From Candidatus Nomurabacteria bacterium (GTDB taxonomy: Bacteria > Patescibacteriota > Minisyncoccia > Phycocordibacterales > UBA9973), in NCBI GenBank assembly GCA_023267275.1, contig JAHFNO010000005.1, positions 9,462 through 73,461 of the forward strand: DNA of 64,000 nt, written 5' to 3'. Every line of letters starts with the position of its first letter. Positions within the stretch are counted from its first letter, which is position 1. The translations under genes were made by a program, and so were the position numbers. Positions 4,819 to 44,225 of the stretch are shown in pieces. The notes below the pieces were generated by a model that saw only the letters and a program-made list of their open reading frames with translations, was not told the DNA's origin and searched no databases.

Positions 4819-4900
4819 GCGCGAGTGGCGTAATTGGTAAACGCGCCATCTTGAGGTGGTGGTGCCGCAAGGCGTGGAGGTTCAAGTCCTCTCTCGCGCA
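4819..4900 (+). tRNA. tRNA-Leu (anticodon GAG), class II with long variable arm
   Basis: GCGCGAG/CTCGCGC acceptor, D-stem GCGT/ACGC, anticodon arm CCATC-TTGAGGT-GGTGG, variable arm TGCCGCAAGGCGT, T-arm GGAGG-TTCAAGT-CCTCT. CCA not encoded. Confidence 0.9.
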
Positions 4901-6717: not shown

Positions 6718-7158
6718 ATGTGTATGAAAAGAACAATCATAACAATTATTGTGCTCGCGGTTACTGTGTTTGTGATGTATCGTGTTTTTTTAAATACTAA
6801 AAATAATGCAACGCCAATTGCGCCGGTTGTTCCTGTATCGCAAACCGAGCAAGCAACAACAGTTCCCGCACAAACTCCTTCGGTAAAAACAGTACAGATT
6901 GAAATAAAAAATTTTGCATTTGCTCCAAAGTCACAAACTATTCAAGTTGGCACTACGGTAACGTGGGTCAATCGCGATAGCGCTCCGCATACGATCGTGT
7001 CTGACACTGGCAACGTTTTGCATTCACCAATGATTGCAAGCGGGGAAACATTTAGTCATACATTTACCGCTACCGACCTTGCAAGCAGTTCAACCACTCT
7101 CAACTATCACTGCAGTATTCATCCAATGATGAAAGGAACTTTGAATTTGATTCAGTAG
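6718..7158 (+). CDS. Membrane-anchored cupredoxin (plastocyanin/amicyanin-like blue copper protein)
   Basis: N-terminal TM helix; type-1 Cu ligands present: His in SAPHT and C-x2-H-x2-M in [11 protein letters not shown]. Confidence 0.75.
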
Positions 7159-7168
7159 TAATTACACT

Positions 7169-7525
7169 ATGAACGAACTCACTCCAGAAGAAAAGCGAGT
7201 CATTATCGACAAGGGAACAGAAGCTCCGTTTACCGGAGAGTATGTAAACAACAAGGCAACAGGCGTATATGTGTGTCGCCAGTGTGGTGCGCCGTTGTAT
7301 AATTCAAAAGACAAATTTGAATCCAATTGTGGCTGGCCAAGTTTTGATGATGAAATTCCTGGAGCGATTCATAAAAGTCTCGATGCAGATGGTATGCGAA
7401 CAGAAATTACTTGCGCAAAATGCGGAGCACACCTCGGTCATGTATTTGTTGGTGAACATTTTACCGATAAAAATATTCGTCACTGTGTGAATTCTATTTC
7501 AATGCGGTTTGTTCCAGGAAAATAA
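7169..7525 (+). CDS. msrB: Peptide-methionine (R)-S-oxide reductase MsrB
   Basis: [43 protein letters not shown]: full MsrB/SelR signature including the Zn-binding CxxC pairs. Confidence 0.9.
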
Positions 7526-7537
7526 GTATTTTGACAA

Positions 7538-7559
7538 GTATACCCCCGAGGGGGTATAC
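7538..7559. promoter_or_regulatory. CsoR-type operator palindrome overlapping a sigma70-like promoter
   Basis: Perfect palindrome GTATACCCCC-GA-GGGGGTATAC, matching the GC-rich TACCC..GGGTA CsoR operator architecture. Sits between TTGACA (7531-7536) and a TATACT -10, just upstream of csoR. Confidence 0.6.
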
Positions 7560-7567
7560 TTTTTTAT

Positions 7568-7831
7568 ATGCATACCGACAAAACAAAACTCATTCGTCGA
7601 CTCAAGATCATTGAAGGGCAAGTGCGTGGACTCCAAGAGCTCATCGAAAAAGATACCTATTGTATTGATGTTATTACGCAAACCTCGGCAATCAAGCAAG
7701 GACTTTCAAACGTTGAAGATCTATTGCTCGAAGGACACCTTGGACATTGTTTGGTAAATCAAATCAAAAAAGGGCAGACGGAGAAGGCTACAAAAGAAAT
7801 TTTAAAAGTCTATGGTCTAAAAAGGAAGTAG
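7568..7831 (+). CDS. csoR: CsoR/RcnR-family copper-sensing repressor
   Basis: RLKIIEGQVRGLQELIEKDTYCIDVITQ...LLLEGHLGHC carries the conserved Cys/His/Cys metal ligands of CsoR. Upstream of copA. Confidence 0.85.
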   Translation: MHTDKTKLIRRLKIIEGQVRGLQELIEKDTYCIDVITQTSAIKQGLSNVEDLLLEGHLGHCLVNQIKKGQTEKATKEILKVYGLKRK

Positions 7832-7864
7832 AAAGCTCAAAGCCTAAAGCTGAAAGTAAAATTT

Positions 7865-10159
7865 ATGCAAAATACAAATACATTTAAAGTTCGCGGGATG
7901 CATTGTGCCTCATGTGCTGCGACTATTGAAAAAACATTTAAAAAAACTGACGGTGTTTCTTTGGCAGAGGCAAATTATGGCACCGAGTCCGTCAAAGTAG
8001 ATTTTGATGCATCAAAAACTTCTCCCGAAGCACTGTCTCAAAAAATCCAACCATTCGGATATGAGCTCATTATTCCAACCGCAGAAGAAATGCATATGTC
8101 GCAGAGTGAGCACGCGACGCATCTGGGACTCAATCAATCAAAGACAGAAAAATTGCAGGAACTTACCAGTTTGAAAATAAAAGTACTCACCGCTATTCCA
8201 CTCGCGATTGTGAGTCTCGTTTTCATGACTTGGGACATTCTCGCAGGATATGTACTCGTTCCCCAAATGAGTACAATGGTAAAAGAAATTTTTCAAATTC
8301 TTCTTCCGCTTTTTGCTACATACATGCTGTTCTACGTAGGGAAGCCATATCTTCTGGGCTTGTACCGATTTTTCCGCTATGGCAATGCAAACATGGATAC
8401 ACTGGTCGGGCTTGGTACTGGAGTGGCGTTTGTATATAGTCTCGCAACCATTTTCTTTCGCAGTGCGCTCGCTCGATACATAAATGTGGATGCAACATAT
8501 TTTGACATCACGATCATCGTCATTACATTTATTACGCTCGGAAAATATCTTGAGACTCGTTCAAAATTGAAAACTGGCGATGCAATTGAAAAACTCCTCA
8601 ACCTTTCTGCGAAGACAGCACTTGTTGCGCGTGATGGTACAGAAATGGAAATTCCAACGAGTGAGGTTGTGGTCGGCGATGTGCTTGTAGTAAAGCCGTC
8701 GGGAAAAATTCCTGTAGATGGCGTGCTTGTCGACGGTCATTCGTATGTTGATGAATCGATGATTACTGGCGAGCCAATGCCTCGCGAAAAAAATACGGGA
8801 GATTCTGTTGTTGCTGGCACAATAAATACGAGTGGTACATTTACGTTTCGCGCAACAAAAGTTGGGTCCGAAACAATGCTCGCACATATCATCAAGATGG
8901 TGGAAGATGCGCAGGGGAGCCGTGCTCCTATTCAGGCACTTGCCGACAAAATTTCTGCAGTGTTTGTGCCCGTCGTACTTGTGCTCGCGTTCCTTACGCT
9001 TGGATTGTGGATTGCTATTGGCACATCGCATCTTGGTTTTTCAAAAGCACTCGCCGATGGACTCACTTCATTTGTCGGTATTCTCGTGATTGCTTGTCCG
9101 TGTGCACTCGGTCTTGCAACACCGACGGCTATCATCGTTGGCGTCGGCAAAGGTGCAAAGGAGGGTATTCTCATCAAAGATGCGGCAACGCTGGAAAAAT
9201 TGCACACGGTGAATGTGGTTGTCTTGGACAAGACTGGTACGGTGACTCATGGCAAACCAGAACTGAGTACACTCAATAATGTTTCGAGCGAGAGTGATGA
9301 AAGAATTATACAATTGCTTGCCACACTCGAATCTCGATCGGAGCATCCGATTGCACGAGCGATTCTTACGCATGCGAAGGAAAAAAATATTTCGGTTCTC
9401 TCAATGAACAATTTTGATGCATTGAAAGGGAAAGGGGTGGGTGCTGAAATTGATGGTGTGCATTATTTTGCCGGCAGTGCTCGACTCGTCGAAGAATTCA
9501 ATATCAATTTTGATACACACTCGTTTGCCTCTCAATTGAGTGAAGGTAAGACACCGGTATTTCTTACAACAAAATCTGCAGTTCTTGCTGTAGTGTTTGT
9601 CTCTGATGCCATAAAGTCTGGAGTACAAGATGCAGTTACGCAATTACACAAGCTTGGTATTCGCGTCGTAATGCTTACCGGCGACACACAAAAAACTGCC
9701 GAATATATTGCACGCTCTGCCGGAATCGATGAGGTTGTGGCCGAAGTTTTGCCGGAAGACAAACTCGCAACGATTGTTGATTTGCAGAAAAAAGGCAATA
9801 CAGTGGCGATGGTAGGAGATGGCGTCAACGATGCACCGGCGCTCGCGCAAGCTGATGTGGGTATTGCGATGGCGACGGGTACTGATGTTGCTATCGAAAG
9901 TGCCGGCATTACTTTGCTTCACGGAGATATTTCAAAACTCGTAAAAGCTATTCGGCTTTCAAAACTCACGATGCGTGGCATCAAACAAAATTTGTTTTGG
10001 GCGTTTGTATATAATATAGTTGGCATTCCACTCGCAGCCGGATTGTTCTATCCGTTGTTTGGTTGGTTGCTCTCTCCGATATTTGCTGGACTTGCGATGG
10101 GACTCTCTAGTGTTTCCGTTGTCGGGAATTCACTGCGATTAAAAACTAAGAAACTCTAA
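7865..10159 (+). CDS. copA: Copper-translocating P1B-type ATPase
   Basis: N-terminal [36 protein letters not shown], eight predicted TM segments. Confidence 0.95.
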
Positions 10160-10220
10160 GGGAACACTTACGTCGATGTAATTCGACGCAAGGGAACACT
10201 TATGCAAAGCTAAAAATTGT

Positions 10221-10844
10221 ATGGAACAGAAAAAAACACAAAAAACATTTTTACTTGTCGTTGTTTGTATCATCGTCGTAGTACTCGTTGTGTTTCTTGG
10301 AAAAACGAATAGCACACCACAAGCTCCGGTATCAGAAAATACAACACTCGGTATACAGGTGACGGCAGCGCCATGGATTGCGGAAATAGCGCATTTGAAA
10401 GAGCGACTCGCGTCTATTGGATTGCCAGCTCTTCCGGAAGAGGGAACTACGCTCCATATACATCAACATCTCGATATTTTTGTGCACGGAAAACCAGTTG
10501 CCGTATCGCCTGGAATTGGAATCAATGAGCAAGATCGTTTTATTGCACCGATTCATACACACGATGCATCAAATGTTATTCACGTTGAATCACCAACAGT
10601 ACAAGATTTTACTCTCGGACAGTTCTTCGACATTTGGGGTGTGCAATTTACAGCGAATGCGATTGGCGGATATACGAGTGATGCAACAAATACGCTCACT
10701 GTGTTTGTAAATGGAAAAGAATTTGCTGGTGACCCAAGAACACTTATTCTTGCTCCGCACCAAGAAATTGTCGTGACATTTGGAACAAAAGCTGAAATTC
10801 CAAATCCTGTGCCATCGTCGTATACATTTTCAGATGGAGAATAA
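10221..10844 (+). CDS. Membrane-anchored His-rich hypothetical protein within the copper cluster
   Basis: Signal-anchor helix, then HIHQHLDIFVHG...IHTHDASNVIHVESP histidine clusters. No known domain. Confidence 0.5.
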   Translation: MEQKKTQKTFLLVVVCIIVVVLVVFLGKTNSTPQAPVSENTTLGIQVTAAPWIAEIAHLKERLASIGLPALPEEGTTLHIHQHLDIFVHGKPVAVSPGIGINEQDRFIAPIHTHDASNVIHVESPTVQDFTLGQFFDIWGVQFTANAIGGYTSDATNTLTVFVNGKEFAGDPRTLILAPHQEIVVTFGTKAEIPNPVPSSYTFSDGE

Positions 10845-10853
10845 TATATTTAT

Positions 10854-11882
10854 ATGAACACACAAAAAACATATACATTTCATGTGCACGGCATGCATTG
10901 CAACTCATGTGTACTCCTTACGGAGAGTGAACTCGCCGAGCTTCCATACATCACGAGTGCAAAGAGTAGTTTACAGAATCGCACGGTTGTTGTTGAAGGA
11001 GACTTTGGTGAGCAAACTGCCGAAGAAATCGCACAAACACTCACGAATGTATTGCAGCCACACGGATATACACTTTCGATTGAAGCAGAACAAAAAGAAA
11101 AAAATCTTTCTGAATTTATGGTCGCAGTTCCGATCGCGATTGGTTTTGCCGCACTCTTTTTGTTGCTCCAAAAATCAGGTATTGTGCACCTGAGTGGATT
11201 TGGAGAGGTGACGTACGGCACGGCATTTGTCATTGGTATCATCGCTTCGCTTTCTTCGTGTATGGCAGTGGTGGGAGGACTCGTACTTTCAATGTCGGCA
11301 ACATTCGCAAAAGAAAGTAGTACTGCTCGTCCACAGATTCTTTTCCATATTGGACGAATCGTTTCGTTTTTTGTACTTGGTGGAGTCGTTGGTCTTTTGG
11401 GAAAAGCATTTGCACTCTCGGCAACAGTGACATTTATACTTGGGCTCATTGTTGGTTTGGTAATGCTTATTCTCGGAATCAATTTGCTCGATGTTTTTCA
11501 TTGGTCAAAACGTTTGCAACCAGGGATGCCAAAAATTCTTTCCAAGCATGCGTTTAACGTTTCAAAAATAAATGGAGCTGTGACACCACTCCTTGTTGGG
11601 GTCGCCACCTTTTTCCTGCCATGTGGATTTACACAATCGATGCAAATTTACACACTTTCAACGGGAAGTTTTTTGAAAGGAGGACTTACCATGCTTGCAT
11701 TCGCACTAGGTACATTTCCTGTGCTCGCCGCACTTTCATTTGGTTCATCGAATATTGCAAAAAGTGCAAAGTCGGGCATATTTTTTAAATCCGCAGGACT
11801 CGTTGTGATTCTTTTTGCAGTATTTAATATTATCAATGCACTAGCAGTGGCAGGAATTATTCCACCAGTATTTAATTTTTAA
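10854..11882 (+). CDS. HMA-domain fused to a DsbD/CcdA/TauE-like transmembrane domain
   Basis: N-terminal GMHCNSC heavy-metal-associated motif; polytopic membrane domain with paired cysteines (SSCMAV, FLPCGF). Confidence 0.65.
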   Translation: MNTQKTYTFHVHGMHCNSCVLLTESELAELPYITSAKSSLQNRTVVVEGDFGEQTAEEIAQTLTNVLQPHGYTLSIEAEQKEKNLSEFMVAVPIAIGFAALFLLLQKSGIVHLSGFGEVTYGTAFVIGIIASLSSCMAVVGGLVLSMSATFAKESSTARPQILFHIGRIVSFFVLGGVVGLLGKAFALSATVTFILGLIVGLVMLILGINLLDVFHWSKRLQPGMPKILSKHAFNVSKINGAVTPLLVGVATFFLPCGFTQSMQIYTLSTGSFLKGGLTMLAFALGTFPVLAALSFGSSNIAKSAKSGIFFKSAGLVVILFAVFNIINALAVAGIIPPVFNF

Positions 11883-11900
11883 TATACGCTACACAAATGG

Positions 11901-11990
11901 CTCATTTCTTCGTTGCCTCACTCGTTTGTTCCCGCGGAGTAGGATTACTACACCTTAGTCACAAGCCTCATTCGCGCCTCGAACTGCATC
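11901..11990 (+). repeat. Copy 1 of a ~90-nt dispersed intergenic element
   Basis: Core ...ctcgtttgttcccgcggagtaggattactacaccttagtcacaagcctcattcgcgcctcgaactgcat, embedded between the 18-bp inverted repeat atatacgctacacaaatgg / ccatttgtgtagcgtata. Copies also at 34412-34503 (inverted) and 42075-42170. Confidence 0.65.
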
Positions 11991-12016
11991 CATTTGTGTA
12001 GCGTATAATAACTTTT

Positions 12017-12406
12017 ATGAAAAAATCAGTATTCATTATTATTTGTAGTCTCGCCGGGATACTCGTACTGTCACTCTTTTTTGTTTCGCCGAAAAAAGTA
12101 CCGGAGATGAGTGTCGATGGTTCAAATGTGTATATGGAAAATGGCGTTCAGATTGTGGCAATTAAAGCTGGTGGGGGATATTCTCCGCAAGTGAGTGTGG
12201 CGAAGGCAGGTATTCCGACAAAAATCCGGTTTGCCACGAGTGGTTCATTTGATTGTTCTTCGTCGGTTCGGATTCCAAGTCTTCATATCTCTCAAATTCT
12301 TCCTCAAAAAGGGAAAGCTGATATCGATATTGGTACACCAAGTGCCGGACCACTCCAGGGAATGTGTGGAATGGGAATGTATCCGTTTAGTGTCACGTTT
12401 CAGTAA
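12017..12406 (+). CDS. Secreted Cys/Met-rich protein, possible copper-binding
   Basis: Signal peptide; C-terminal GMCGMGMY and FDCSSS. Next to the copper genes. No confident domain assignment. Confidence 0.4.
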   Translation: MKKSVFIIICSLAGILVLSLFFVSPKKVPEMSVDGSNVYMENGVQIVAIKAGGGYSPQVSVAKAGIPTKIRFATSGSFDCSSSVRIPSLHISQILPQKGKADIDIGTPSAGPLQGMCGMGMYPFSVTFQ

Positions 12407-12414
12407 CGGCTGGT

Positions 12415-12771
12415 TTGCAGTATACTATTCAAATGCAAAAATTACAGAACAAGCGATGTATTCCGTGTGAGCAAAAGAAGGGGACAGCGCCTCTTTCAAA
12501 AGAAGCTATCGATCAGTTATTTGTTGAGCTTACCGGATGGGAAATCGCAAAGAATTACAAATCAATCGTGAAAGATTTGGTTTTTACAAATTTTGATAAG
12601 GCGATGGATTTTGTAAATGTAGTTGCCGACCTCGCCGAATTTGAAGGACACCACCCCGATATTGATATTCGTTACAATAAAGTAAAGCTTGTACTCTCGA
12701 CACATTCCATAGGTGGTCTTTCAGAAAATGATTTTATTCTTGCAGCAAAAATCGACCGAATTTTTTTGTAA
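12415..12771 (+). CDS. Pterin-4a-carbinolamine dehydratase (PCD/DCoH)
   Basis: LTGWEI...FTNFDKAMDFVNVVADLAEFEGHHPDIDIRYNKVKLVLSTHSIGGLSENDFILAAKID matches the PCD family, including the HHPD motif. Confidence 0.8.
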   Translation: MQYTIQMQKLQNKRCIPCEQKKGTAPLSKEAIDQLFVELTGWEIAKNYKSIVKDLVFTNFDKAMDFVNVVADLAEFEGHHPDIDIRYNKVKLVLSTHSIGGLSENDFILAAKIDRIFL

Positions 12772-20779: not shown

Positions 20780-21316
20780 ATGAGAAAAAAGAATTGGTTT
20801 GCATATACCCTTGGGCTTGCACTGTGCTTTTTTGTTCGTCTGATTCCGTTCCGTGCCCCCAATGTAGAACCAATTCTCGCCGCACAAATGCCATTTTCTC
20901 GCGTCTACGGCGCATTCTCTGGCTTTCTCTTCGGTTTTGCGAGTATCGTCTTGTTTGATTTTGTCACACAGCGCGTAGGAATCTGGACACTCATTACAGC
21001 ATTTACATACGGATTTTTGGGTCTTGGTGCAAATCTCTATTTTAAAAACAAAGAAAACAGTGCTCGCTCATACGTCACCTTCGCTATCTTCGCCACACTT
21101 TTCTATGACGCAATTACCGGACTCACTGTGGGACCACTCTTTTTTCATGAATCATTCATGATTGCGCTTGTCGGACAGATACCATTTACTGCACTCCATC
21201 TTTTAGGAAATATTTCCTTCGCATACTTTATTAGTCCGAGTTTGTATCGAGTGCTCACCAGTGAAAGAGAAACAACACGTGCAATTATTAGTAACCCTCT
21301 TATCAAACTTTCATAA
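20780..21316 (+). CDS. Small six-TM membrane protein, possibly an ECF S-component / BtuM-like vitamin transporter
   Basis: About 178 aa with six predicted helices and S-component-like size. Located 6 bp upstream of AdoCbl-dependent nrdJ. Function assigned from context only. Confidence 0.45.
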   Translation: MRKKNWFAYTLGLALCFFVRLIPFRAPNVEPILAAQMPFSRVYGAFSGFLFGFASIVLFDFVTQRVGIWTLITAFTYGFLGLGANLYFKNKENSARSYVTFAIFATLFYDAITGLTVGPLFFHESFMIALVGQIPFTALHLLGNISFAYFISPSLYRVLTSERETTRAIISNPLIKLS

Positions 21317-21321
21317 TATTT

Positions 21322-23649
21322 ATGGCAAAGAAAACAATCAAAAAAGCAAAAGCTTCGGTCGCAAAGAAAAGTGCAAAAGCAGTAAAAGCTTCTAAGGATG
21401 CAAAGATTACTTTGATTCAGAAGCGTGATGGAAACGTAGTTCCATTTTCTATTGAACGAATCGAGCGTGCCGTATTGAAAGCGTTTGGTGCCACAAACGA
21501 AGGAGGGGAGAAGGAAGCAAAAAGTGTTGCTGATAAAGTGGTGCATATCCTTGCGCATCACAAAGAAGAAGCAGGCAAAGGATATGTTCCACACGTTGAA
21601 CGTGTACAAGACTTTGTTGAACAGGCATTGATCGCTCTTTCATTTCCTGTTACTGCCAAGGCATACATTCTCTACCGTGAAGAACGCGCTCAGAAACGAA
21701 AGGCAGGCGTGTTTGTACCTGAAAAAGTAAAGGAGCTCGTAGCACAAAGTAAAAAATATTTCCGCAATCCTTTGGCCGAGCTCGTGTACTATCGTTCGTA
21801 TTCCAATTGGATGAGCGAGGAAGGCCGCCGCGAAACTTGGATTGAAACAGTCGACCGCTACATTTCATTTATGAAAGAAAATCTCGGTTCAAAACTTTCA
21901 AATGCCGAATATGCAGAAGTACGTGAAGCCATCCTCAATCATGAAGCACTTCCATCAATGCGTCTTTTGCAGTTTTCCGGAAAAGCAGCGCATCGTACAA
22001 ATGTGTGTGCATACAACTGTTCATTTATTGCTCCGCAATCATTCCAGGATTTTGCTGAAATTATGTACATCTCCATGTGTGGAACTGGTGTGGGTTGGTC
22101 TGTAGAAAGTCGCAATATTCAAGCGCTTCCTCAGGTACAAATGCAAACAGGCAAAAAACTCCCAACGCATATCGTGGTGGATAGTAAGGAAGGTTGGGCA
22201 GATGCATTCTCTCTTGGAATGAAAACATGGTACGAAGGAAACAATATTGATTTCAATTTCTCGTTGCTTCGTCCAGCCGGTGCTCGTTTGAAAACAATGG
22301 GAGGAAAGAGTTCTGGTCCTGCACCACTTCAAGCACTCCTCGAGTTTACTCGTGAACGTATTCTTCGTCGACAAGGACGTCACCTTACAAACCTCGATGC
22401 GCATGACATCATCTGTAAAATCGGAGACTGTGTTGTGGCTGGAGGAGTTCGTCGTAGCGCGATGATTTCACTTTCTGATCTTGATGATGAAGCAATTCGT
22501 GATTCAAAGAAAGGACAATTTTATCTCAACGAAGGTCAGCGTTCTCTCGCAAACAATTCTGCTGTGTATGAAGCAAAGCCAAGCACGGAAGAATTTTTGG
22601 ATGAATGGGTTTCTCTCGTGAAGTCCGGTTCCGGTGAGCGTGGAATCTTCAATCGTGGCGGTCTTGCAAAGACATTGCCAAAGCGCCGCCTCGATCAATT
22701 CAAAGGTGGTATCTATCCAGCATGGGGAACAAATCCATGTGGAGAAATTATTTTGCAGTCAAAACAATTTTGTAATCTTTCCGAAGTAGTGGCTCGCGCA
22801 GAAGACACAGAAGAGACACTCATGAAGAAGATTCGCATCGCAACAATTCTTGGAACATATCAATCTACACTTACATTCTTCCCATATCTTTCAAAAGAAT
22901 GGAAAAAGAATTGTGACAAGGAGCGATTGCTCGGAGTTTCGATCACTGGTCAGTGGGATAGTAGTACGGCGCGAAAGGCTGATGTTCTTGTTCGACTCAA
23001 GAATGAGGCGATTAAGGTCAACAAAAAGTACGCAGAAAAATTTGGTATCACACAATCTACCTGTATTACTTGTGTGAAGCCTTCAGGAACTGCATCACAG
23101 ACCGTGGATTGTTCAAGTGGAATGCACCCTCGTCATGCTCCATACTATATCCGTCGTATTCGTATTTCTGCGACAGACGCACTCTTCAAAATGCTTCGCG
23201 ACCAAGGTGTGCCGTATTATCCAGAAGTTGGACAGACAATGGAAAATGCATCAACCTTTGTTCTTGAATTTCCCGTAAAAGCTCCAGATGGTGCTATCTG
23301 TAAAGATGACGTCGATGCTATCACTCAACTCGAACACTGGAAGGTAGTAAAAGAAAATTATACTGAACACAATCCTTCTGTAACCGTTTCTGTAGGAGAA
23401 GATGAGTGGATCAAGGTGGGCAACTGGGTATATGAAAACTGGGACATCGTTGGTGGACTTTCATTCTTGCCTCGCAGTAATCACGTGTATCGACTCGCTC
23501 CATATGAAGCCATTACAAAAGAAAAATACGAAGAACTTTTGAAACAAGTAAGTCACATCGATTTCTCAAAGATTGTCACGTACGAGAAAGATGATGAGAC
23601 TGAAATTAAGAAGGAACTTGCTTGTGTTGCTGGTGTGTGTGAAGTGTAA
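21322..23649 (+). CDS. nrdJ: Class II (adenosylcobalamin-dependent) ribonucleotide reductase with N-terminal ATP-cone
   Basis: ATP-cone ITLIQKRDGNVVPFSIERIERAV; WGTNPCGEIILQS active-site motif; overall class II RNR architecture. Confidence 0.9.
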   Translation: MAKKTIKKAKASVAKKSAKAVKASKDAKITLIQKRDGNVVPFSIERIERAVLKAFGATNEGGEKEAKSVADKVVHILAHHKEEAGKGYVPHVERVQDFVEQALIALSFPVTAKAYILYREERAQKRKAGVFVPEKVKELVAQSKKYFRNPLAELVYYRSYSNWMSEEGRRETWIETVDRYISFMKENLGSKLSNAEYAEVREAILNHEALPSMRLLQFSGKAAHRTNVCAYNCSFIAPQSFQDFAEIMYISMCGTGVGWSVESRNIQALPQVQMQTGKKLPTHIVVDSKEGWADAFSLGMKTWYEGNNIDFNFSLLRPAGARLKTMGGKSSGPAPLQALLEFTRERILRRQGRHLTNLDAHDIICKIGDCVVAGGVRRSAMISLSDLDDEAIRDSKKGQFYLNEGQRSLANNSAVYEAKPSTEEFLDEWVSLVKSGSGERGIFNRGGLAKTLPKRRLDQFKGGIYPAWGTNPCGEIILQSKQFCNLSEVVARAEDTEETLMKKIRIATILGTYQSTLTFFPYLSKEWKKNCDKERLLGVSITGQWDSSTARKADVLVRLKNEAIKVNKKYAEKFGITQSTCITCVKPSGTASQTVDCSSGMHPRHAPYYIRRIRISATDALFKMLRDQGVPYYPEVGQTMENASTFVLEFPVKAPDGAICKDDVDAITQLEHWKVVKENYTEHNPSVTVSVGEDEWIKVGNWVYENWDIVGGLSFLPRSNHVYRLAPYEAITKEKYEELLKQVSHIDFSKIVTYEKDDETEIKKELACVAGVCEV

Positions 23650-23800
23650 AAAAGTTGAAAGTTTATAAAGTTCATAAAGTTGAAAGTCATACAAATGGAG
23701 ACACTCAAAGTTTGCATTCTTCTCCCTCTTTACCAAGGGGGAGATTAAGAGGGGGTGCATTTTCTTTATACTTTCAACTTTATACTTTATACTTATTCAT

Positions 23801-24358
23801 ATGCTCTACACTCGAAAAGGCGATAGTGGTACTACAAAAACATTTGGTTGCGATCAACGAGTTTCAAAAAGCTCGGCTATTGCTGAGGCACTCGGCTCGC
23901 TCGATGAAATCAATTCATTCCTTGGACTTTTGAAACTCAAAGCTGGCAGTGCTGTGTGGTCATTGCCAAACCAAGAACTTGCTGTGGCGGAAACTGTCAA
24001 TCGTATTCAACAAGATTTGTTTATCGTGCAGGCCGAACTCGCCGGTGCAGAAAAAACGATTGCTGAAGACAAGGTTAAATGGCTTGAATCCATTATTGAT
24101 GGAATAGAAAAGACACTGCCTCCTATCACCACATTCTTCGTCTCTGGTGGTACAGAACTCGCCGCACTTTCCGATGTTTGTCGCACAATTGTACGCCGTG
24201 CAGAACGCCGTGTGGTGGCCGTACAAGAGGAGGGAACTCGACCAGTGGGTGAATTTACTCGCGCCTACCTCAATCGTCTCTCAAGTGTATTTTACGCCTT
24301 TGCCCGCGAGGCAAATCATGTGACAGGTATAGTCGAAGAATCACCAAAGTATCAATAA
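23801..24358 (+). CDS. PduO-type ATP:cob(I)alamin adenosyltransferase
   Basis: MLYTRKGDSGTT...SAIAEALGSLDEINSFLG matches the PduO/MMAB N-terminal signature MKIYTRTGDKGETSL...EAYGTVDELNS. Confidence 0.85.
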   Translation: MLYTRKGDSGTTKTFGCDQRVSKSSAIAEALGSLDEINSFLGLLKLKAGSAVWSLPNQELAVAETVNRIQQDLFIVQAELAGAEKTIAEDKVKWLESIIDGIEKTLPPITTFFVSGGTELAALSDVCRTIVRRAERRVVAVQEEGTRPVGEFTRAYLNRLSSVFYAFAREANHVTGIVEESPKYQ

Positions 24359-24367
24359 AATTTTTAG

Positions 24368-25003
24368 GTGATGAAAAAAATCTATTTTGTCCGACATGGT
24401 GAGAGTGAGGGAAATGCAGGTCTTATACAACAAGACCGCTCTTCTCCGTTGACTAAAAAAGGCAAGGAGCAAGTTACTTCAGTTGCTCAACGTTTTATAA
24501 AACTTCCAATAGAAATCGTTTTAAGTAGTTCAATGATTCGAGCAAAAGAAACGGCAGAAATTATTTCCGGCACAACAAATGTGTCAATTGAATTCTCTGA
24601 TTTGTTTGCGGAACGTAGAAAGCCATCAATTATGTATGGAAAACGTAAAGACAATCCAGCTTCAGTAGAAGCATACAAAGATGTTGTTATAAATTTTCAT
24701 CTACCCGGATTTCGTCATTCTGATGAAGAAAATTTTGATGATTTAAAAAAACGTGCCCTTAGTGCACTAGCGTATTTATCAAATCGACCTGAAGAACACA
24801 TCGTTGTTGTTACACACGCTTATTTTTTGCGTATACTCATTGCCTGTGTTTTGTTTGGAGATACCCTGACTGGAGAAGAGTGTTCTCGATGTACTCAAAT
24901 TTTTTATGCTGAAAATACAGGGGTTACTATTATTAGTTATGATGCAGAAAAAGAGAATCCTTGGCGAATTTGGGTTTGGAACGACCATGCGCACCTAGAT
25001 TAA
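24368..25003 (+). CDS. Histidine phosphatase (PGAM) family protein; alpha-ribazole phosphatase (CobC)-like role plausible from context
   Basis: YFVRHGESEGN (RHG motif), SSSMIRAKETAEII, VVVTHAYFL. Confidence 0.75.
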   Translation: MMKKIYFVRHGESEGNAGLIQQDRSSPLTKKGKEQVTSVAQRFIKLPIEIVLSSSMIRAKETAEIISGTTNVSIEFSDLFAERRKPSIMYGKRKDNPASVEAYKDVVINFHLPGFRHSDEENFDDLKKRALSALAYLSNRPEEHIVVVTHAYFLRILIACVLFGDTLTGEECSRCTQIFYAENTGVTIISYDAEKENPWRIWVWNDHAHLD

Positions 25004-25064
25004 TGAGTTTTTTATCCCCACTTGCATGATTTTAAGAGAGGTGTACACTGCGAGAGTAGTTAAT

Positions 25065-25240
25065 AAAAAAATAGTTTGTGATTGGGGAAGTGAGGTTTGA
25101 ATCCTCCACAGTGCCGCTACGGTGATACCAAGACTCTCTTGGGAAGTCCGAATGCCAATCATAAATAGTGTGTCCCGAGCAGGAAATGTAGCGCGTGTTA
25201 AGCGCTCGTCTCTACAAAGTCCCTCGGAAGGGATTTTTTT
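25065..25240 (+). ncRNA. Cobalamin riboswitch with intrinsic-terminator expression platform
   Basis: tGGGGAAGTGAGGTTTGAATCCTCC...ACGGTGATAC...GGGAAGTCCGAATGCCAATC parallels the T. tengcongensis AdoCbl aptamer (GUGGGAAAGUGACGUGAAAUUCGUCC...ACGGUUAUACUCCGAAUGCCACC). Ends in the tccct-cgga-aggga hairpin plus T7 at 25220-25240, ~80 bp upstream of the DUF4430 gene. Confidence 0.75.
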
Positions 25241-25263
25241 GTTGTACAAATCTCGGTTTCTCC

Positions 25264-25305
25264 AATATCCGTTTTCACAAGTGGCCACTTGTGAAAACGG
25301 ATATT
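25264..25305. promoter_or_regulatory. Perfect 42-bp palindrome between riboswitch terminator and DUF4430 start
   Basis: aatatccgttttcacaagtgg/ccacttgtgaaaacggatatt with 21-bp arms and no mismatch. Contains TCACA-N10-TGTGA. No flanking T-run, so not a classic terminator. Confidence 0.4.
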
Positions 25306-25321
25306 AGAAAGAAGAAAAAAT

Positions 25322-25837
25322 ATGCATAAAAAATACACAATTTTCTCAGTTATTATTTTTGTTGCGATTCTCGCAGGCTTTTTTGCTATGACAAAAAAGC
25401 CTGCGCAAACACCAGCAGTTACTCCATCTACTCCTCCTGTATCTGTTGTACAAAATATCGGAGCGACAAAAAAAGAAACTCCCGCAACGCCTCCTTCAAC
25501 ACAAATCACAGAGAAAGATTCTGTTGCGAAGCCAACTCTTTCAGTAAGTCCTGACACCACTACAATCAAGCTTATTGTTGGAGACGCAACAACATCTCTT
25601 TCGGCTCCAACAAACAGCTCTTTGTATCAGATGCTCAAGATTGCTCAAATGCAAGGACAAATTACATTTTCTGGAAAACAATATTCAGGACTTGGATTTT
25701 TTGTGACTGCAATCGGTGGTTTGCAAAGCGGGGGAGGAAAGAATTTGTTGTATTACATTAATGGCAAAGAGGCGTCGGTCGGCGTGTCTACCTATATTCC
25801 GCAAAACGGCGACGTTGTGGAGTGGAAATTAGAATAA
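25322..25837 (+). CDS. DUF4430 (transcobalamin-like beta-domain) lipoprotein/surface protein, putative cobalamin binder
   Basis: Signal-anchor then YQMLKIAQ...GLGFFVTAIGGL...LLYYINGKEASVGVSTYIPQNGDVVEWKL matches the DUF4430 pattern. Directly downstream of the cobalamin riboswitch. Confidence 0.6.
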   Translation: MHKKYTIFSVIIFVAILAGFFAMTKKPAQTPAVTPSTPPVSVVQNIGATKKETPATPPSTQITEKDSVAKPTLSVSPDTTTIKLIVGDATTSLSAPTNSSLYQMLKIAQMQGQITFSGKQYSGLGFFVTAIGGLQSGGGKNLLYYINGKEASVGVSTYIPQNGDVVEWKLE

Positions 25838-25840
25838 AAA

Positions 25841-25921
25841 TTTGGTCATTCCCGGCCTGACCGGGAATCCAGGCTAAATGAATTCAACCCTGGATCCTGA
25901 AACAAGTTCAGGATGACCCTA
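25841..25921. repeat. Composite REP-like hairpin pair
   Basis: gtcattcccggcctgaccgggaatccaggc then ggatcctgaaacaagttcaggatgaccc. The same composite recurs at 54453-54535 (gtcattcccggctagaccgggaatccaggc ... ggatcctgaatcaagttcaggatgaccc). Confidence 0.65.
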
Positions 25922-25929
25922 AAAATTTT

Positions 25930-28149
25930 ATGAAAAATAAATATACAAAATTTGGAGTTGGTTTTTTGATTGCAATTGTTTTGTTTGGCGGTGCGATTGT
26001 TCGTGCAGATGATGTGACTCCACCAGCCGATACAACGCCTCCGGTCATAACACTTTTAGGTGATGCATCTGTGACACTTACTGTCGGTGGAACATTTACC
26101 GATGCCGGAGCAACAGCCACAGATGATGTTGATGGAGATATAACTTCACACATTGTTGAGACCGGAACAGTCGATGTAAACACACTAGCCACATATACGC
26201 TTACTTACAATGTGAGTGATACAGCGGGAAATCCTGCGACTCCAGTCACTCGCACTGTTGTGGTCAATCCGCTCCCAGCTCCAACTGAGACAGTCATTGT
26301 TCGCAATGGCGCAACTCTGATTTGGCAGGGAACTGTTCCGCTTGAAACTGCTGGAACAGAATCGATCAATGACAGCACTGGTACAGCTCACACCATAAAC
26401 ACTCGCAGTGTTCTTGCTGTGTTGCACGATGCTGAAACAACGAGCACTGCATTTTCTCTTTCCAATCTTACGTACTACGATTCATTCGGTGCATTTTATC
26501 TGAAATGTGTCACCCCAACAGGGGGAAGTGAGTTGTGTGACAATTGGCAATATGCTGTCGGAACATCTACTCCATGGACGAGTATCGACGCCACAGTTCT
26601 TTCTGGTGGAGAAACTATTGGTATTTATTTTGGCAGTCAGCATCAGGTAGAATTTGATGCAACAACGATTACTGCTGGAAATATATTGACTGCAACAGCT
26701 GAGTCGTACAATTATGCCGACAATACATGGAGTCCGCTTACTGGAGTATCAATCGGCATTACTACACCAAATCCGAGCGATTCTTGGAGTCCAATTGTTG
26801 TCTCAACAAATCCTGTTGGTACAGATGGAAAAGCAACAATCACGATTGCTGATGCTGGCACATACAACGCAGGAATTGCTGAGGATTATTATTTTCCTTC
26901 CTATACGATCACGGTAAATCCTGTCGTGACGAGTGGCGGAGGAAGCGGAGGTACACTTCCGCCGCCAACATTCAGTGTTGCGAATGCGATTGCGTATTTG
27001 CAAAGTATGCAAGCAAGCAACGGCTCTTTCGGTGGTTCAGATTTGTATACTGATTGGGCAGGAATTGCATATAGCGCGGGCGGTGTTGCCGGAAGCGCAC
27101 GCGATTCACTCATTGCATATCTCTCAACACACAATACGACAAGCTCGTTGCTCACCGACAATGAACGCCGATCGATGACACTCCTTGCTCTTGGACAAAA
27201 TCCATACGCATTTCATGGAACAAATTATATCGCTCCAATCGTTGCATCGTTTGATGGAACACAATTCGGCGATGCGTCATTGGTAAATGATGATATCTTT
27301 GCACTTATTCCACTTGCAAAAGCTGGATATTCTGCGAGTGATGAAATGATTACAAAGGATATTGCATTTATTATTTCAAAACAAAATGTAGATGGTTCGT
27401 GGGAAGGAAGTGCAGATCTCACTGCGGCTTCTGTGCAAGCACTTCAGCAATTTAGTGGAGTGACCGGAGTTGCGACGGCACTTACAAAGGAAAGTACGTA
27501 TTTACAAGACTCACAAAATGCAACGGGTGGATGGAATAATGTTTCCACTTCGAGTTGGGTAGGGCAGGCAATGAGTGCACTCGGTGCATCGTGGACAAAT
27601 AGCGGAAAGAGCATCAATGATTATTTTGCCGCACAACAAGTCTCAGATGGTGCCGTGCTTCCCGCAACTGAGACTGCACAAAATCGCATTTGGGCAACGA
27701 GTTATGCGATTCCGGCAGTGCTCGGTAAGCCATGGAGTGCAATCCTTTCATCAGTATCTCGCCCAGATACGGGAGGTTCGAGCGGAACGGGTGGAGGAGG
27801 AAAATCTACTTCTGATACATCAACACAAAATACACAGAAAAAACAAACAACTGAAACAACAGAACATACCGATTTGCAAAAAGATGTCGTTGTTGGACTA
27901 CCTCAAGAAAATGAGCGAAATCAAAATATTCAAAAAAATAATCTCTTAAAAAAGAACGTAAAAACACTCGACACTCACTCAGTAAAAACAGAGCAAACTG
28001 CAACTCAGTTTCAAACAACAAATACACTAGGCGCGAGTGCGATTGGTAGTGGAGTCCATTTTTCTCTTGGCGGATCATTCAAAAAAGTGGCAACCGTTTT
28101 GGGTTCAGGTATTAAAAATGCATTCAAATTCATGTTTGGTATACTGTAA
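25930..28149 (+). CDS. Large secreted surface protein with DUF5011/Ig-like domain and a terpenoid-cyclase/prenyltransferase-like alpha/alpha-toroid repeat region
   Basis: Signal peptide; VITLLGDASVTLTVGGTFTDAGATATDDVDGDIT (DUF5011-like). Later YLQSMQASNGSFGG...WAGIAYSAGG...LIAYL repeats resemble an alpha6/alpha6 toroid. Immediately downstream of DUF4430 in the riboswitch-controlled unit. Confidence 0.6.
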   Translation: MKNKYTKFGVGFLIAIVLFGGAIVRADDVTPPADTTPPVITLLGDASVTLTVGGTFTDAGATATDDVDGDITSHIVETGTVDVNTLATYTLTYNVSDTAGNPATPVTRTVVVNPLPAPTETVIVRNGATLIWQGTVPLETAGTESINDSTGTAHTINTRSVLAVLHDAETTSTAFSLSNLTYYDSFGAFYLKCVTPTGGSELCDNWQYAVGTSTPWTSIDATVLSGGETIGIYFGSQHQVEFDATTITAGNILTATAESYNYADNTWSPLTGVSIGITTPNPSDSWSPIVVSTNPVGTDGKATITIADAGTYNAGIAEDYYFPSYTITVNPVVTSGGGSGGTLPPPTFSVANAIAYLQSMQASNGSFGGSDLYTDWAGIAYSAGGVAGSARDSLIAYLSTHNTTSSLLTDNERRSMTLLALGQNPYAFHGTNYIAPIVASFDGTQFGDASLVNDDIFALIPLAKAGYSASDEMITKDIAFIISKQNVDGSWEGSADLTAASVQALQQFSGVTGVATALTKESTYLQDSQNATGGWNNVSTSSWVGQAMSALGASWTNSGKSINDYFAAQQVSDGAVLPATETAQNRIWATSYAIPAVLGKPWSAILSSVSRPDTGGSSGTGGGGKSTSDTSTQNTQKKQTTETTEHTDLQKDVVVGLPQENERNQNIQKNNLLKKNVKTLDTHSVKTEQTATQFQTTNTLGASAIGSGVHFSLGGSFKKVATVLGSGIKNAFKFMFGIL

Positions 28150-28151
28150 GC

Positions 28152-28610
28152 ATGGAACAAAAACACAACCCTACACCTCTTGCTGAACTCAAAAAAATAC
28201 AGCGAGCAAGAAATGCCAATGTTCTCCACAAAGAACGCTTGAGCAAACTCGACCGTTTAGCTGTTTGGATCACCGACCATATCGGCACGATGGGCTTTTT
28301 TCTGACTATTTTTACCTGGACAGTGCTTTGGCTTGGTTGGAATATTTTTGCACCGAAGCCAATGCAATTTGATCCATTTCCTGCATTTGTACTCTGGCTC
28401 TTTATCTCAAATATGATTCAGATATTTTTGATGCCACTTCTTATGATTGGTCAGAATATTCAAGGACGTCATAGCGAGGCACGAGCTGATGCCGATTTTG
28501 AAACAGATAAAAAAGCGGAAATTGAAATCGAAACAATCTTGGCTCATTTGGAAAATCAAAACGAAGTCATGATGCAGATTCTTAAGCGATTGGATGAGAA
28601 AGGAAAGTGA
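28152..28610 (+). CDS. DUF1003-family membrane protein
   Basis: Two TM helices flanked by KLDRLAVWITDHIGT and a charged C-terminus, typical of DUF1003. Confidence 0.55.
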   Translation: MEQKHNPTPLAELKKIQRARNANVLHKERLSKLDRLAVWITDHIGTMGFFLTIFTWTVLWLGWNIFAPKPMQFDPFPAFVLWLFISNMIQIFLMPLLMIGQNIQGRHSEARADADFETDKKAEIEIETILAHLENQNEVMMQILKRLDEKGK

Positions 28611-37213: not shown

Positions 37214-37750
37214 TTAAAATGAATTCTTCCACATCATTGATTCTTTTGGAAGCGCTTCTTGCTGGCTGTATTTTGCGTTTACTTTTTTGCTGTATACACG
37301 TTCCACTTCACCTTCTACTTTGTAGTAGATGAGTTGTCCTACTGGCATGCCGGCATAAATGCGAACGGGGATAGTGCATGAGAGTTCGAGTGTCCAGAAT
37401 CCGCAGAATCCAACGTCACCTTTTCCAGCAGTGGCATGAATATCGATACCAAGACGTCCGGTAGAAGATTTTCCTTCAAGAAAGGGAACATGCTTGTGTG
37501 TTTCTGTGTATTCGAGTGTTGAACCGAGGTAGAGCTGTCCTGGCTGAAGTACGTAGCCTTCTTCAGGGATTTCGAAGTGACGGATTTGGTTGTGCTTCTT
37601 TGCATCAATCATTCCATCGGTATATTGAGCGAGGTGTTTTGAGATATGCACGTCGTACGAATTGCCGCCCATATTTTTAGGGTCAAAAGGAGTAATAACG
37701 ATTTCGCTCTTTTCGATGCATTCGAGAATTTTTGTGTCAGATAAAATCAT
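37214..37750 (-). CDS. dcd: dCTP deaminase
   Basis: MILSD.KI...I....I.I.PFD......G.SYDV.I...F; SSTGRLGI, ATAGKGDVGFCGFWTLE; overall Dcd/dUTPase fold signature. Confidence 0.9.
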   Translation of the reverse strand: MILSDTKILECIEKSEIVITPFDPKNMGGNSYDVHISKHLAQYTDGMIDAKKHNQIRHFEIPEEGYVLQPGQLYLGSTLEYTETHKHVPFLEGKSSTGRLGIDIHATAGKGDVGFCGFWTLELSCTIPVRIYAGMPVGQLIYYKVEGEVERVYSKKVNAKYSQQEALPKESMMWKNSF

Positions 37751-39440: not shown

Positions 39441-40406
39441 TTATACTGCGATAGGTGCCTTGATTGCAGGATGTGGATCATAGCCAATCAATTCAAAATC
39501 TTCAATAGTGAAATCCTCCACATTTTTCTTTTCCGGATTCATTTTGAGTGTTGGAAGTGGGCGAATTTCATTGCGTCGCGCGAGCTGTGTTTTTGCTTGC
39601 TCAAGATGATTGAGATATAAATGCACATCACCTCCGGTCCACACAAATTCTCCAACGGCGAGTCCACAAACTTGCGCGATGATGTGTACGAGGAGGGCAT
39701 ATGAGGCAATGTTGAATGGCACACCAAGAAATGTGTCGCAACTGCGCTGATACAACTGGCAGGAAAGTTTTCCATCGGCGACATAGAATTGGAAGAGACA
39801 GTGACATGGAGGAAGCCCTGCCTTTGCCATTTCTGCAATATCGCCCACGTTCCAAGCAGAGACAATCATTCGACGTGAGTCTGGCGTCTTTTTAATTTGC
39901 TCAATAACTTCGGCAAGTTGATCAATATGTCGTCCGCCTTCAGCTGGCCATGAACGCCATTGATATCCATAGATGGGTCCAAGGTTTCCATACTCTTTTG
40001 CAAACGCTTCATCTGTTTTTATTTTTTCAATAAATTCTGCGAGACCTTTTGACCATTCCTCGCTGTCACTTTTTGGTACAGGAATGTTGTTTCGTGTTAA
40101 ATATGCTTTGTATGGCCATTCATCCCAAATGTGTACGTTGTTGTCGGCAAGATATTTTAGATTTGTATCGCCACGAAGAAACCAAAGCAATTCATGGACG
40201 ATCGCTTTGAAGGGAACTTTCTTTGTAGTGAGAAGAGGAAAGCCGTCTTGTAAATTGAAACGCATTTGATAGCCCAGAACACTTTTTGTGCCGGTACCAG
40301 TACGATCGGTTTTTACATTTCCATTTTGTAATAAGTGCTCGAGCAGGTCGAGGTATGATTCGTCAACATGTTTTCCTAACATGTTATCAGTATACTCGTT
40401 TTGCAT
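39441..40406 (-). CDS. thyA: Thymidylate synthase ThyA
   Basis: [42 protein letters not shown]: the full ThyA signature including the active-site Cys. Confidence 0.95.
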
Positions 40407-42923: not shown

Positions 42924-44225
42924 ATGAATACACATCTCGATAATAAAGTGTTTGATGCGATTGCCGGAGAGGCCAAGCGACAAGCGGAGGGTCTCGAGCT
43001 CATTCCTTCTGAAAATTATGTTTCAAAAAATGTGCTTCTTGCCAATGGTTCTATTCTCACCAATAAATATTCCGAAGGGTATCCAGGTCGTCGTTATTAC
43101 GGCGGGCAAGAATTTACTGACAAAATAGAAACACTCGCCATCGAACGCGTCTGCCAGCTTTTCAATTGTAAATTTGCCAATGTGCAACCACATTCAGGTG
43201 CGCCAGCAAACCTCGCGGTCTACTCAGCACTGCTTGAACCAGGCGATACTATTCTTGGAATGGATCTTTCTCACGGCGGACATCTTACGCACGGTCATCC
43301 AATGACACTCCCAGCAAAGATATACAAATTTGTTACCTACAAAATGAAAGATCCTGAAACAGGGGAGATCGATTATGACAATCTTCGCGCGATGGCACTC
43401 GAACACAAACCGAAAATAATTCTTGCGGGATTTTCTGCATACTCACGATCACTCGATTACAAAAAATTTGTAGAGATTGCAAAGGAAGTGGGTGCAATCA
43501 CTGTCGCCGATATGGCGCACATTGCTGGACTCATTGCGGGCAAAGCATTGCGCAATCCATTCGACGATGGTTTCGATGTGATTACGAGTACTACACACAA
43601 AACACTCCGTGGTCCGCGTGGAGGAATTATTCTTACACGCGAGAGTGAAGAGATTGCAAAGAAAATAGACAAGGCAATTTTCCCAGGAATTCAAGGTGGT
43701 CCACACATGCATACTATCGCAGCAAAAGCTGTGGCATTCGGTGAAGCCATGACACCTGCATATCAAGAATACTGTCAGCAAGTTTTGAAAAATGCGAAAG
43801 CAATGGAAGCAGTTTTTCATCGTGAAAAAATTCGCATGATTGGTGGCGGTACTGACAATCATCTTATTCTCGCCGATGTGTTTGGCTCACTTGGCGTGAC
43901 AGGCAAAGAAGCACAGACCGTGCTTGATGAAGTGGGAATTACACTCAACATGAATTCGATTGCAGGGGACACTCGTAAACCGCTTGATCCGTCAGGAATT
44001 CGTTTTGGCACACCAGCAATCACGACGCGTGGATTTAAGGAGGCAGATTGTGCTCGCGTTGCCGAATTGCTCATTGAAACTTTGCGCAATAAAGCTAATT
44101 CGCTGAAAGCGAACGCTCGACCCGACGAGGACGGGTTTAGAGATGACGAAGCAAAGAAAAAAATAATCAAAGCAGAAATTCAAGCACTCGCAGAACAATT
44201 TCCAATACCAGAGAGTTTTGTATAA
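42924..44225 (+). CDS. glyA: Serine hydroxymethyltransferase
   Basis: LIPSENY, GYPGRRYYGG, PLP-lysine motif TTHKTLRGPRGG. Confidence 0.95.
   Translation: MNTHLDNKVFDAIAGEAKRQAEGLELIPSENYVSKNVLLANGSILTNKYSEGYPGRRYYGGQEFTDKIETLAIERVCQLFNCKFANVQPHSGAPANLAVYSALLEPGDTILGMDLSHGGHLTHGHPMTLPAKIYKFVTYKMKDPETGEIDYDNLRAMALEHKPKIILAGFSAYSRSLDYKKFVEIAKEVGAITVADMAHIAGLIAGKALRNPFDDGFDVITSTTHKTLRGPRGGIILTRESEEIAKKIDKAIFPGIQGGPHMHTIAAKAVAFGEAMTPAYQEYCQQVLKNAKAMEAVFHREKIRMIGGGTDNHLILADVFGSLGVTGKEAQTVLDEVGITLNMNSIAGDTRKPLDPSGIRFGTPAITTRGFKEADCARVAELLIETLRNKANSLKANARPDEDGFRDDEAKKKIIKAEIQALAEQFPIPESFV

Follow-up and report, generated by a model that had tools for sequence, protein, structure and literature searches.

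How does an ultra-small bacterium of the Patescibacteria, or candidate phyla radiation (CPR), acquire vitamin B12 and put it to use? CPR bacteria have minimal genomes and take most of their cofactors from other cells. The question is raised by a gene cluster in DNA from a Candidatus Nomurabacteria bacterium (contig JAHFNO010000005.1, assembly GCA_023267275.1). The whole stretch analysed, called the window here, is 64,000 nt long, with a G+C content of 40% and small, closely packed genes. The cluster consists of six open reading frames (ORFs), all on the + strand, with a cobalamin riboswitch in the 318-nt gap between the fourth and the fifth. We conclude that this locus is probably a module for scavenging and using B12, organized in two adjacent units. 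Unit 1 (20780-25003) would comprise a membrane protein that resembles the S-components of energy-coupling factor (ECF) transporters, the ribonucleotide reductase (RNR) NrdJ, the adenosyltransferase PduO and a passenger phosphatase. Unit 2 (25060-28149) would comprise the riboswitch and, after it, the genes of two extracytoplasmic proteins. All the features that an initial annotation of the window had listed were present at or near the coordinates it gave, and the ORFs were as listed. No cob or cbi gene was found among the 70 longer ORFs of the window (about 57 of them annotated), a count that covers the window and not the whole genome. For comparison we used 80 related loci representing species-level genomes, all of them Patescibacteria/CPR assemblies (with labels such as Nomurabacteria, Paceibacterota, Parcubacteria and similar).

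Cobalamin riboswitches located 5' of uptake genes are classical. The only riboswitch that Rfam finds in the 64 kb is a match to AdoCbl-II (RF01689, clan CL00101), which scores 37.0 bits where the gathering threshold is 36.5, with an E-value of 3.9e-5 over the whole window. We searched the related loci with the element itself (25060-25245, single-sequence nhmmer). Of the 72 loci that reach 600 nt or more upstream, 58 have a homologue in the same orientation, close to the 5' side of the DUF4430 gene. An Rfam scan of 14 related loci gave gathering-level matches to cobalamin-clan families (RF01689, RF01482 or RF00174; 37-58.8 bits) in 11 of them. We then aligned the window's element with those of 30 related loci. 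The 31 sequences share the near-invariant core GGGGAAG...GGTG.AAATCC...CACAGTGCCGCTACGGT...AAGTCCGA.T.CCAAT. Two-sided compensatory changes occur at 17 of the 28 pairs tested, and none of 500 shuffles reached the observed values. Paired cells amount to 83.8% in the riboswitch alignment, as compared with 28-50% in slid controls, and in the outer helix all nine pairs show two-sided compensatory changes. The length of the peripheral hairpin at the P6 position is variable, and 5 of the 31 sequences lack it, which fits a minimal architecture of the class-II type. An alternative local pairing suggested by RNAalifold (columns 89-93 with 97-101) conflicts with the Rfam structure and is made of invariant bases, and it was not adopted. 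Thus, the identity and the conservation of the cobalamin riboswitch are established computationally. The element had been predicted to control the DUF4430 and toroid genes, and the Rfam match, backed by the relatives, agrees with this.

Downstream of the aptamer, the intrinsic terminator of the expression platform is kept in all 31 aligned sequences, with compensatory changes at five of eight pairs. The 3' arm is rich in purines (GGAG or AGGAG) and, in most relatives, is found 5-20 nt 5' of the start codon, where it would serve as the Shine-Dalgarno sequence. The same hairpin would therefore also mask that sequence, so that the riboswitch of most relatives would exert OFF control over transcription and translation together. 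The stretch that separates aptamer and terminator contains the motif TCCCGAGCAGGAA. The sequence CCGAGCAGG is unchanged in 31 of 31 aligned sequences, while its flanks and the adjacent hairpin vary freely. The Rfam models give no account of TCCCGAGCAGGAA; the 3' hairpin of RF01482 was considered as an explanation and does not explain it. The motif is similar to the B12-box segment GTCCGA, and its AGGA core is also similar to the 3' arm of the terminator. Because of the latter resemblance, we hypothesize that TCCCGAGCAGGAA is a competitor strand for the 5' arm of the terminator.

In the window, the terminator is separated from the DUF4430 start codon by a perfect palindrome without a loop, which stretches the distance between them to 86 nt. 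Its core consists of CCGTTTTCACAAGTGG followed directly by CCACTTGTGAAAACGG. No inverted repeat longer than this palindrome occurs in the window. The extended 3' arm reaches over the ribosome-binding region and the start codon of the DUF4430 gene. The palindrome is not a repeated element: there is no second copy in the window, and it is absent from the related loci examined. In one relative, L003, some 190 nt of other sequence are inserted at this site.

We next consider how firmly the genes are linked. The DUF4430 gene is located immediately 5' of the toroid gene in 75 of the 80 loci. A block of the S-component and NrdJ genes, in most cases with PduO, is found directly upstream and in the same orientation in 40 loci; PduO is in the cluster in about 25-30 loci. 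Ten of these 40 loci yielded no riboswitch element, and in at least 6 of the 10 the gap to the DUF4430 gene measures 28-202 nt. With so short a gap and no riboswitch, all the genes of these loci form a single operon. The functional link of NrdJ, PduO and the S-component that had been suggested from the window is borne out by this arrangement. Unbiased clustering of all ORFs within 10 kb on each side of the 80 loci revealed no other frequent neighbour. In the window, a gene for a DUF1003 membrane protein (28152-28610, + strand) begins 3 nt past the stop codon of the toroid gene and is probably co-transcribed with it. It is a neighbour in no related locus except L063, where it is about 8 kb away. 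The AI-2E transporter gene further downstream is likewise not a conserved neighbour.

The enzymes of unit 1 were assigned by family and structure matches. For NrdJ the best model is TIGR02505 (RTPR), with 298 bits, which is under the equivalog cut-off of 340. Its top match in the PDB is 1L1L, the adenosylcobalamin (AdoCbl) ribonucleoside triphosphate reductase of L. leichmannii (E 1.9e-48), and the insertion domain of B12-dependent RNRs was matched with an E-value of 1.6e-4. PduO scores 148.8 bits with TIGR00636, over the cut-off of 108.45, and 154 bits with PF01923 (E 5e-45). Both enzymes are thus what the initial annotation took them for, an AdoCbl-dependent class II reductase and a PduO-type adenosyltransferase. 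Its CobC-like phosphatase has to be given up. The protein belongs to branch 1 of the histidine phosphatases, but it scores 63.1 bits with TIGR03162, far under the cut-off of 162.9, and the dPGM model scores as high or higher. No cobS, cobT or cobU was seen alongside it. Among the 80 loci the phosphatase gene is present in the cluster only in close relatives L003 and L004 of the window, so that it is poorly conserved there and is a peripheral passenger.

Two sets of genes elsewhere in the window touch on these enzymes. A class I aminoacyl-tRNA synthetase of 1177 aa (50271-53804, + strand; tRNA-synt_1, Anticodon_1, DUF5915) contains, at residues 508-672, an insertion that is a complete His_Phos_1 domain (E 1.9e-34); such a fusion is unusual. 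The insert is 35% identical to the phosphatase of the cluster over 81 residues. Genes of deoxynucleotide metabolism also lie near the NrdJ locus: a dCTP deaminase-like gene (DCD, 37214-37750, - strand), thymidylate synthase (39441-40406, - strand), serine hydroxymethyltransferase (SHMT, 42924-44225) and thymidylate kinase (45602-46297).

The riboswitch precedes two genes for extracytoplasmic proteins. The small protein, taken initially for a DUF4430 protein of the transcobalamin beta-domain type, matches PF14478 (DUF4430) with an E-value of 1.1e-11 and 45.5 bits against a cut-off of 23.8. Among PDB sequences it is matched best by bovine transcobalamin, in the beta domain (residues 332-411, E 0.022), in agreement with that assignment. 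The large surface protein, of which an identical copy is present on metagenome contigs, was modelled over residues 115-615 from a 60-sequence alignment. The model has a mean predicted local distance difference score (pLDDT) of 91.5 and a predicted template modelling score (pTM) of 0.57, which leaves the arrangement of the domains uncertain. From N to C terminus it consists of three domains: one that is beta-grasp-like, with a helix before a beta-hairpin, then a beta-sandwich, and last an alpha/alpha toroid. A helix followed by a hairpin is what characterizes SLBB domains of the transcobalamin-like clade (PMC1796856).

Is the first of these domains a second DUF4430 module? A BLASTP comparison of the small DUF4430 protein with the middle of the large one found no match, and a hidden Markov model built on the small protein's domain matched the large-protein orthologs no more than weakly. 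PF14478 matches 9 of the 60 large-protein orthologs (P0073 with 34.7 bits and P0074 with 25.4, the cut-off being 23.8), and these matches map to residues 160-234 of the window's protein. In hhalign the domain aligns in register with the small DUF4430 family (E 0.004). The ortholog matches and the hhalign result establish the cryptic DUF4430 domain. We also rejected the reading of P0073 as the small and the large protein naturally fused, because its DUF4430 match falls on domain 1 of the large protein itself. The system therefore has two beta-type modules, one in the large protein and one in the small protein.

For the toroid, PF01122 (Cobalamin_bind) matches 13 of the 60 orthologs, two of them over the gathering score; in the window's protein Pfam gives a weak match of the squalene-cyclase repeat type. 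The fold class of this region had been recognized at the outset, with an extent of residues 330-560, which we correct to about 349-609. The binder had also been called split. There is indeed a separate beta-type gene, but the large protein is not an alpha half alone, because it has its own DUF4430/SLBB domain at residues ~160-234. It looks like a complete transcobalamin-like protein with permuted domains, the beta-type domain standing ahead of the toroid. On these resemblances we infer that the small and the large protein may both bind cobalamin.

Most members of the large-protein family (P0002-P0053) end in a conserved L[TS]A[ST]A, then a helix that is hydrophobic, then a short tail that is basic. 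Sorting signals of the sortase/exosortase type have this three-part arrangement, although the motif itself was not recognised. The tail of the window's copy is degenerate and amphipathic.

The scheme that we propose is as follows. When intracellular cobalamin is sufficient, the terminator hairpin would abort transcription of unit 2. When B12 is scarce, the membrane-tethered DUF4430 protein and the large surface protein would be made. The large protein would capture a corrinoid from the environment or from the host, and the small tethered module could relay it to the importer in the membrane. The membrane protein of unit 1 would import the cobalamin, PduO would turn it into adenosylcobalamin, and NrdJ would use this cofactor to make deoxyribonucleotides.

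Table 1. Features of the B12 locus (positions in the window; residues are those of the large surface protein)
Feature	Position	Strand	Basis or description
Membrane protein with ECF S-component fold, 178 aa	20780-21316	+	PF07155, E 6e-10
NrdJ, class II AdoCbl-dependent ribonucleotide reductase	21322-23649	+	N-terminal ATP-cone, RNR_Alpha, RNR barrel (Pfam)
PduO-type ATP:cob(I)alamin adenosyltransferase	23801-24358	+	PF01923, TIGR00636
Histidine phosphatase, branch 1 (His_Phos_1)	24368-25003	+	PF00300, E 1e-30
Cobalamin riboswitch aptamer, class-II-like core	25060-25165	+	Part matched by Rfam, 25075-25165
Invariant motif TCCCGAGCAGGAA	25173-25185	+	Between aptamer and terminator, 3' of the aptamer's closing helix
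Intrinsic terminator of the expression platform	25216-25240	+	Terminator scan; 9-bp stem, CGGA loop, T7 run
Perfect palindrome without loop	25257-25312 (56 nt); extended arms 25236-25333	+	Between terminator and DUF4430 ATG
DUF4430/SLBB protein, 171 aa	25322-25837	+	Hydrophobic N-terminal membrane anchor, Pro/Thr-rich linker, beta-domain-like module at residues ~85-171 of this protein
Large surface protein, 739 aa	25930-28149	+	N-terminal signal peptide
Immunoglobulin (Ig)-like domain (bacterial), residues 40-112	26047-26265	+	Pfam
Cryptic DUF4430/SLBB-like domain, residues ~118-235	26281-26634	+	Ortholog Pfam matches, hhalign, model
Beta-sandwich, residues 236-335	26635-26934	+	Model
Alpha/alpha toroid, residues 349-609	26974-27756	+	Model
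Low-complexity stalk and C-terminal tail, after the toroid	27757-28149	+	

Several observations, here and in the alternatives that follow, weigh against this scheme. The riboswitch of the window is only 0.5 bit over the Rfam threshold and is marginal when taken alone; its recurrence in the related loci, the Rfam matches in relatives and the covariation rescue it. In the present genome, the 56-nt palindrome parts the terminator from the start codon and thereby probably disrupts the ancestral link between switch and translation. The window's large ORF itself has neither a PF01122 nor a DUF4430 match. When the family profile of the large protein was run against PDB sequences, it retrieved squalene-hopene and terpene cyclases only and no transcobalamin; for this reason we do not claim that the toroid belongs to the transcobalamin alpha family at the sequence level. 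Foldseek places the thioester domains of alpha-2-macroglobulin and C3 above transcobalamin. Finally, no EcfT or EcfA was found among the conserved neighbours of the 80 loci or among the annotated ORFs of the window, and the membrane protein is structurally nearer to FolT/RibU than to BtuM/CbrT.

What, then, does the membrane protein carry? It has the six-helix S-component fold as well as the family match. It shows no sequence or close structural homology to CbrT of L. delbrueckii (PDB 6FNP), nor homology to BtuM. Thus, it is an S-component of a family distinct from CbrT and BtuM. Of the earlier description as a possible BtuM/ECF-S-type transporter, the ECF-S fold stands and BtuM falls. The alternative that survives best is that the protein imports some other substrate, such as riboflavin, folate or a nucleoside-related compound, and that cobalamin enters by another route. 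The Pfam family is named for RibU, but with the RibU equivalog (NF010182) the protein reaches 17 bits, far under the cut-off of 99, and we rejected this identity. The closest structures are S-components of the FolT/RibU type, with BtuM and CbrT ranking lower; the S-component fold, for its part, does not allow the substrate to be predicted. There is no riboswitch upstream of the gene at 20780 and no conserved cysteine of the BtuM kind. Against these points stands the position of the gene, which adjoins nrdJ, in either order, in 38-40 loci, usually with pduO, in a layout that mirrors the validated logic of nrdJ-cbrS-cbrT-pduO (PMC5997447). On balance, we regard another substrate as somewhat unlikely. 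In the B12 scheme the membrane protein is a candidate cobalamin importer, a substrate suggested by its near-obligate adjacency to nrdJ and pduO; the same argument led to CbrT.

A second alternative concerns the ligand of the two surface proteins under the riboswitch. They may capture heme, or corrinoid precursors such as cobinamide, and feed an importer of tetrapyrroles. Binders of the haptocorrin type are promiscuous for corrinoids, which would suit this idea. Cobinamide is also transported by ECF-CbrT (PMC5997447). Moreover, the ECF operon lsa1836-1840 of Lactobacillus sakei encodes two separate homologs of transcobalamin, the beta-like Lsa1839 and the alpha-like Lsa1840, for which a role in heme uptake has been proposed on experimental grounds (bioRxiv 10.1101/864751). 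However, a riboswitch of the cobalamin clan stands over the genes in most of the loci scored for it. In addition, the genes lie beside nrdJ/pduO operons or are fused to them, and no gene related to heme is found among the conserved neighbours. These features make heme or a precursor an improbable ligand, and cobalamin remains the ligand that we prefer.

The third alternative, that the large protein is a surface enzyme or a protective protein built on a toroid like that of terpene cyclases or alpha-2-macroglobulin and is tied to the riboswitch merely by co-transcription with the DUF4430 gene, is very unlikely: the toroid has no cysteine and hence no CGEQ thioester, which also led us to reject an alpha-2-macroglobulin-like thioester protein; its conserved acidic motif is VNDD, whereas class II cyclases have DxDD; the protein is both secreted and anchored, and no genes of the isoprenoid pathway lie close to it; and it has a DUF4430-like domain of its own, an almost constant DUF4430 partner gene and B12 riboswitch control. 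The toroid fold alone does not identify a B12 binder. We favour B12 binding because of the Cobalamin_bind matches of the orthologs, the cryptic DUF4430 domain and the genomic context taken together.

A few other genes of the window were noted in passing. A reverse transcriptase gene (RVT_1, E 3e-23; 58137-59309, + strand) lies directly 5' of the gene for a DUF11 surface-type protein of 642 aa (59351-61279, + strand); the pair may represent a retroelement, of the diversity-generating kind or some other. A copper-handling cluster (6718-12771, + strand) encodes cupredoxins, a CsoR-type repressor, a P-type ATPase bearing HMA, an HMA-DsbD_2 protein and also MsrB (SelR). An ORF with a faint LAGLIDADG_3 match (4144-4818, + strand; seen via L082 6280-6954) ends one base before a tRNA gene (4819-4900). 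On the same contig, just upstream of the window, there is a gene for a serine-type recombinase (L082 245-1189).

Taken further, the B12 reading leads to a broader proposal, which is possible and which we put forward tentatively. Bacteria of the Paceibacteria/Nomurabacteria type of Patescibacteria may share a lineage-wide apparatus for B12 piracy. It would combine a surface-anchored, permuted analogue of transcobalamin, a membrane-tethered beta-domain relay and a third family of S-component-like cobalamin importers beside CbrT and BtuM, possibly free of an ECF module. The riboswitch above it would use its terminator as a sequestor of the ribosome-binding site and the 13-nt motif as a new regulatory element. 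If this is true, the apparatus would be a tractable prokaryotic model for the cooperation of the two domains of transcobalamin, and a model for the supply of B12 from hosts to ultra-small symbionts. If the substrate is confirmed, the S-component family would represent a third cobalamin-specific branch. The locus offers a concrete, conserved and testable candidate route of B12 acquisition in 75-80 sampled species-level genomes. The riboswitch-linked family, with its confident model, is a good candidate for biochemical work on B12 binding. It also bears on the proposal that the B12 carriers of animals descend from bacterial proteins with SLBB and toroid domains.

In the searchable literature we found nothing on this system or on a cobalamin riboswitch in CPR bacteria, no description of a B12 acquisition route in CPR/Patescibacteria, and no bacterial transcobalamin-like protein that has been biochemically characterised as a B12 binder. 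The nearest known system for unit 1 is the nrdJ-cbrS-cbrT-pduO cluster of Lactobacillus delbrueckii, in which CbrT was shown experimentally to transport B12 (Santos et al. 2018, PMC5997447). In both clusters a small S-component gene adjoins the genes of an AdoCbl class II RNR and PduO, and they share the logic of import, adenosylation and use; L. delbrueckii, the host of that cluster, is a B12 auxotroph. BtuM of Thiobacillus denitrificans (Rempel et al. 2018, PMC6072759) is comparable as a small protein of S-component fold near B12-related genes that may act without a dedicated ECF module. The L. sakei operon resembles our locus in having separate genes for extracellular proteins of the beta type and the toroid type next to an S-component. 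It has its own EcfT and EcfA and is assigned to heme uptake, and, unlike that pair, the present large protein has a beta-type domain of its own and riboswitch control. The riboswitch is like those of the class-II type (RF01689, CL00101) in its conserved core, its helices and its position 5' of B12 acquisition genes. It adds the invariant motif of 13 nt on the 3' side of the aptamer and, in most relatives, a terminator merged with the Shine-Dalgarno sequence.

For the large protein, the closest precedent was described by Burroughs, Balaji, Iyer and Aravind in 2007 (PMC1796856). They predicted that bacterial surface proteins with SLBB and alpha/alpha-toroid domains, in either order, bind B12. 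The proteins of both sets are secreted or anchored SLBB-toroid fusions, often with Ig-like domains. The 2007 set was centred on Firmicutes and purely predictive, whereas the present family is Patescibacteria-wide. It also differs in having a beta-sandwich between the two domains, a second, stand-alone SLBB gene, a conserved riboswitch and the nrdJ operon. Mammalian transcobalamin, intrinsic factor and haptocorrin (2BB6, 2PMV, 4KKJ) sandwich B12 between the same two types of domain that we found in the large protein. These carriers are single chains in which the alpha domain comes first and the beta domain last; here the order is reversed, beta before alpha, and a separate beta-type protein is added. 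The large protein additionally has the beta-sandwich, an Ig-like domain, a stalk and an anchor, and its window copy is without a direct PF01122 match. Every type of part thus has a precedent, and the lineage-wide CPR version is a variant assembled from known kinds of parts. Particular to it are the two beta-type modules, an S-component family that is neither CbrT nor BtuM and has no neighbouring ECF module, the terminator that would double as a Shine-Dalgarno sequestor, and the invariant extra motif.

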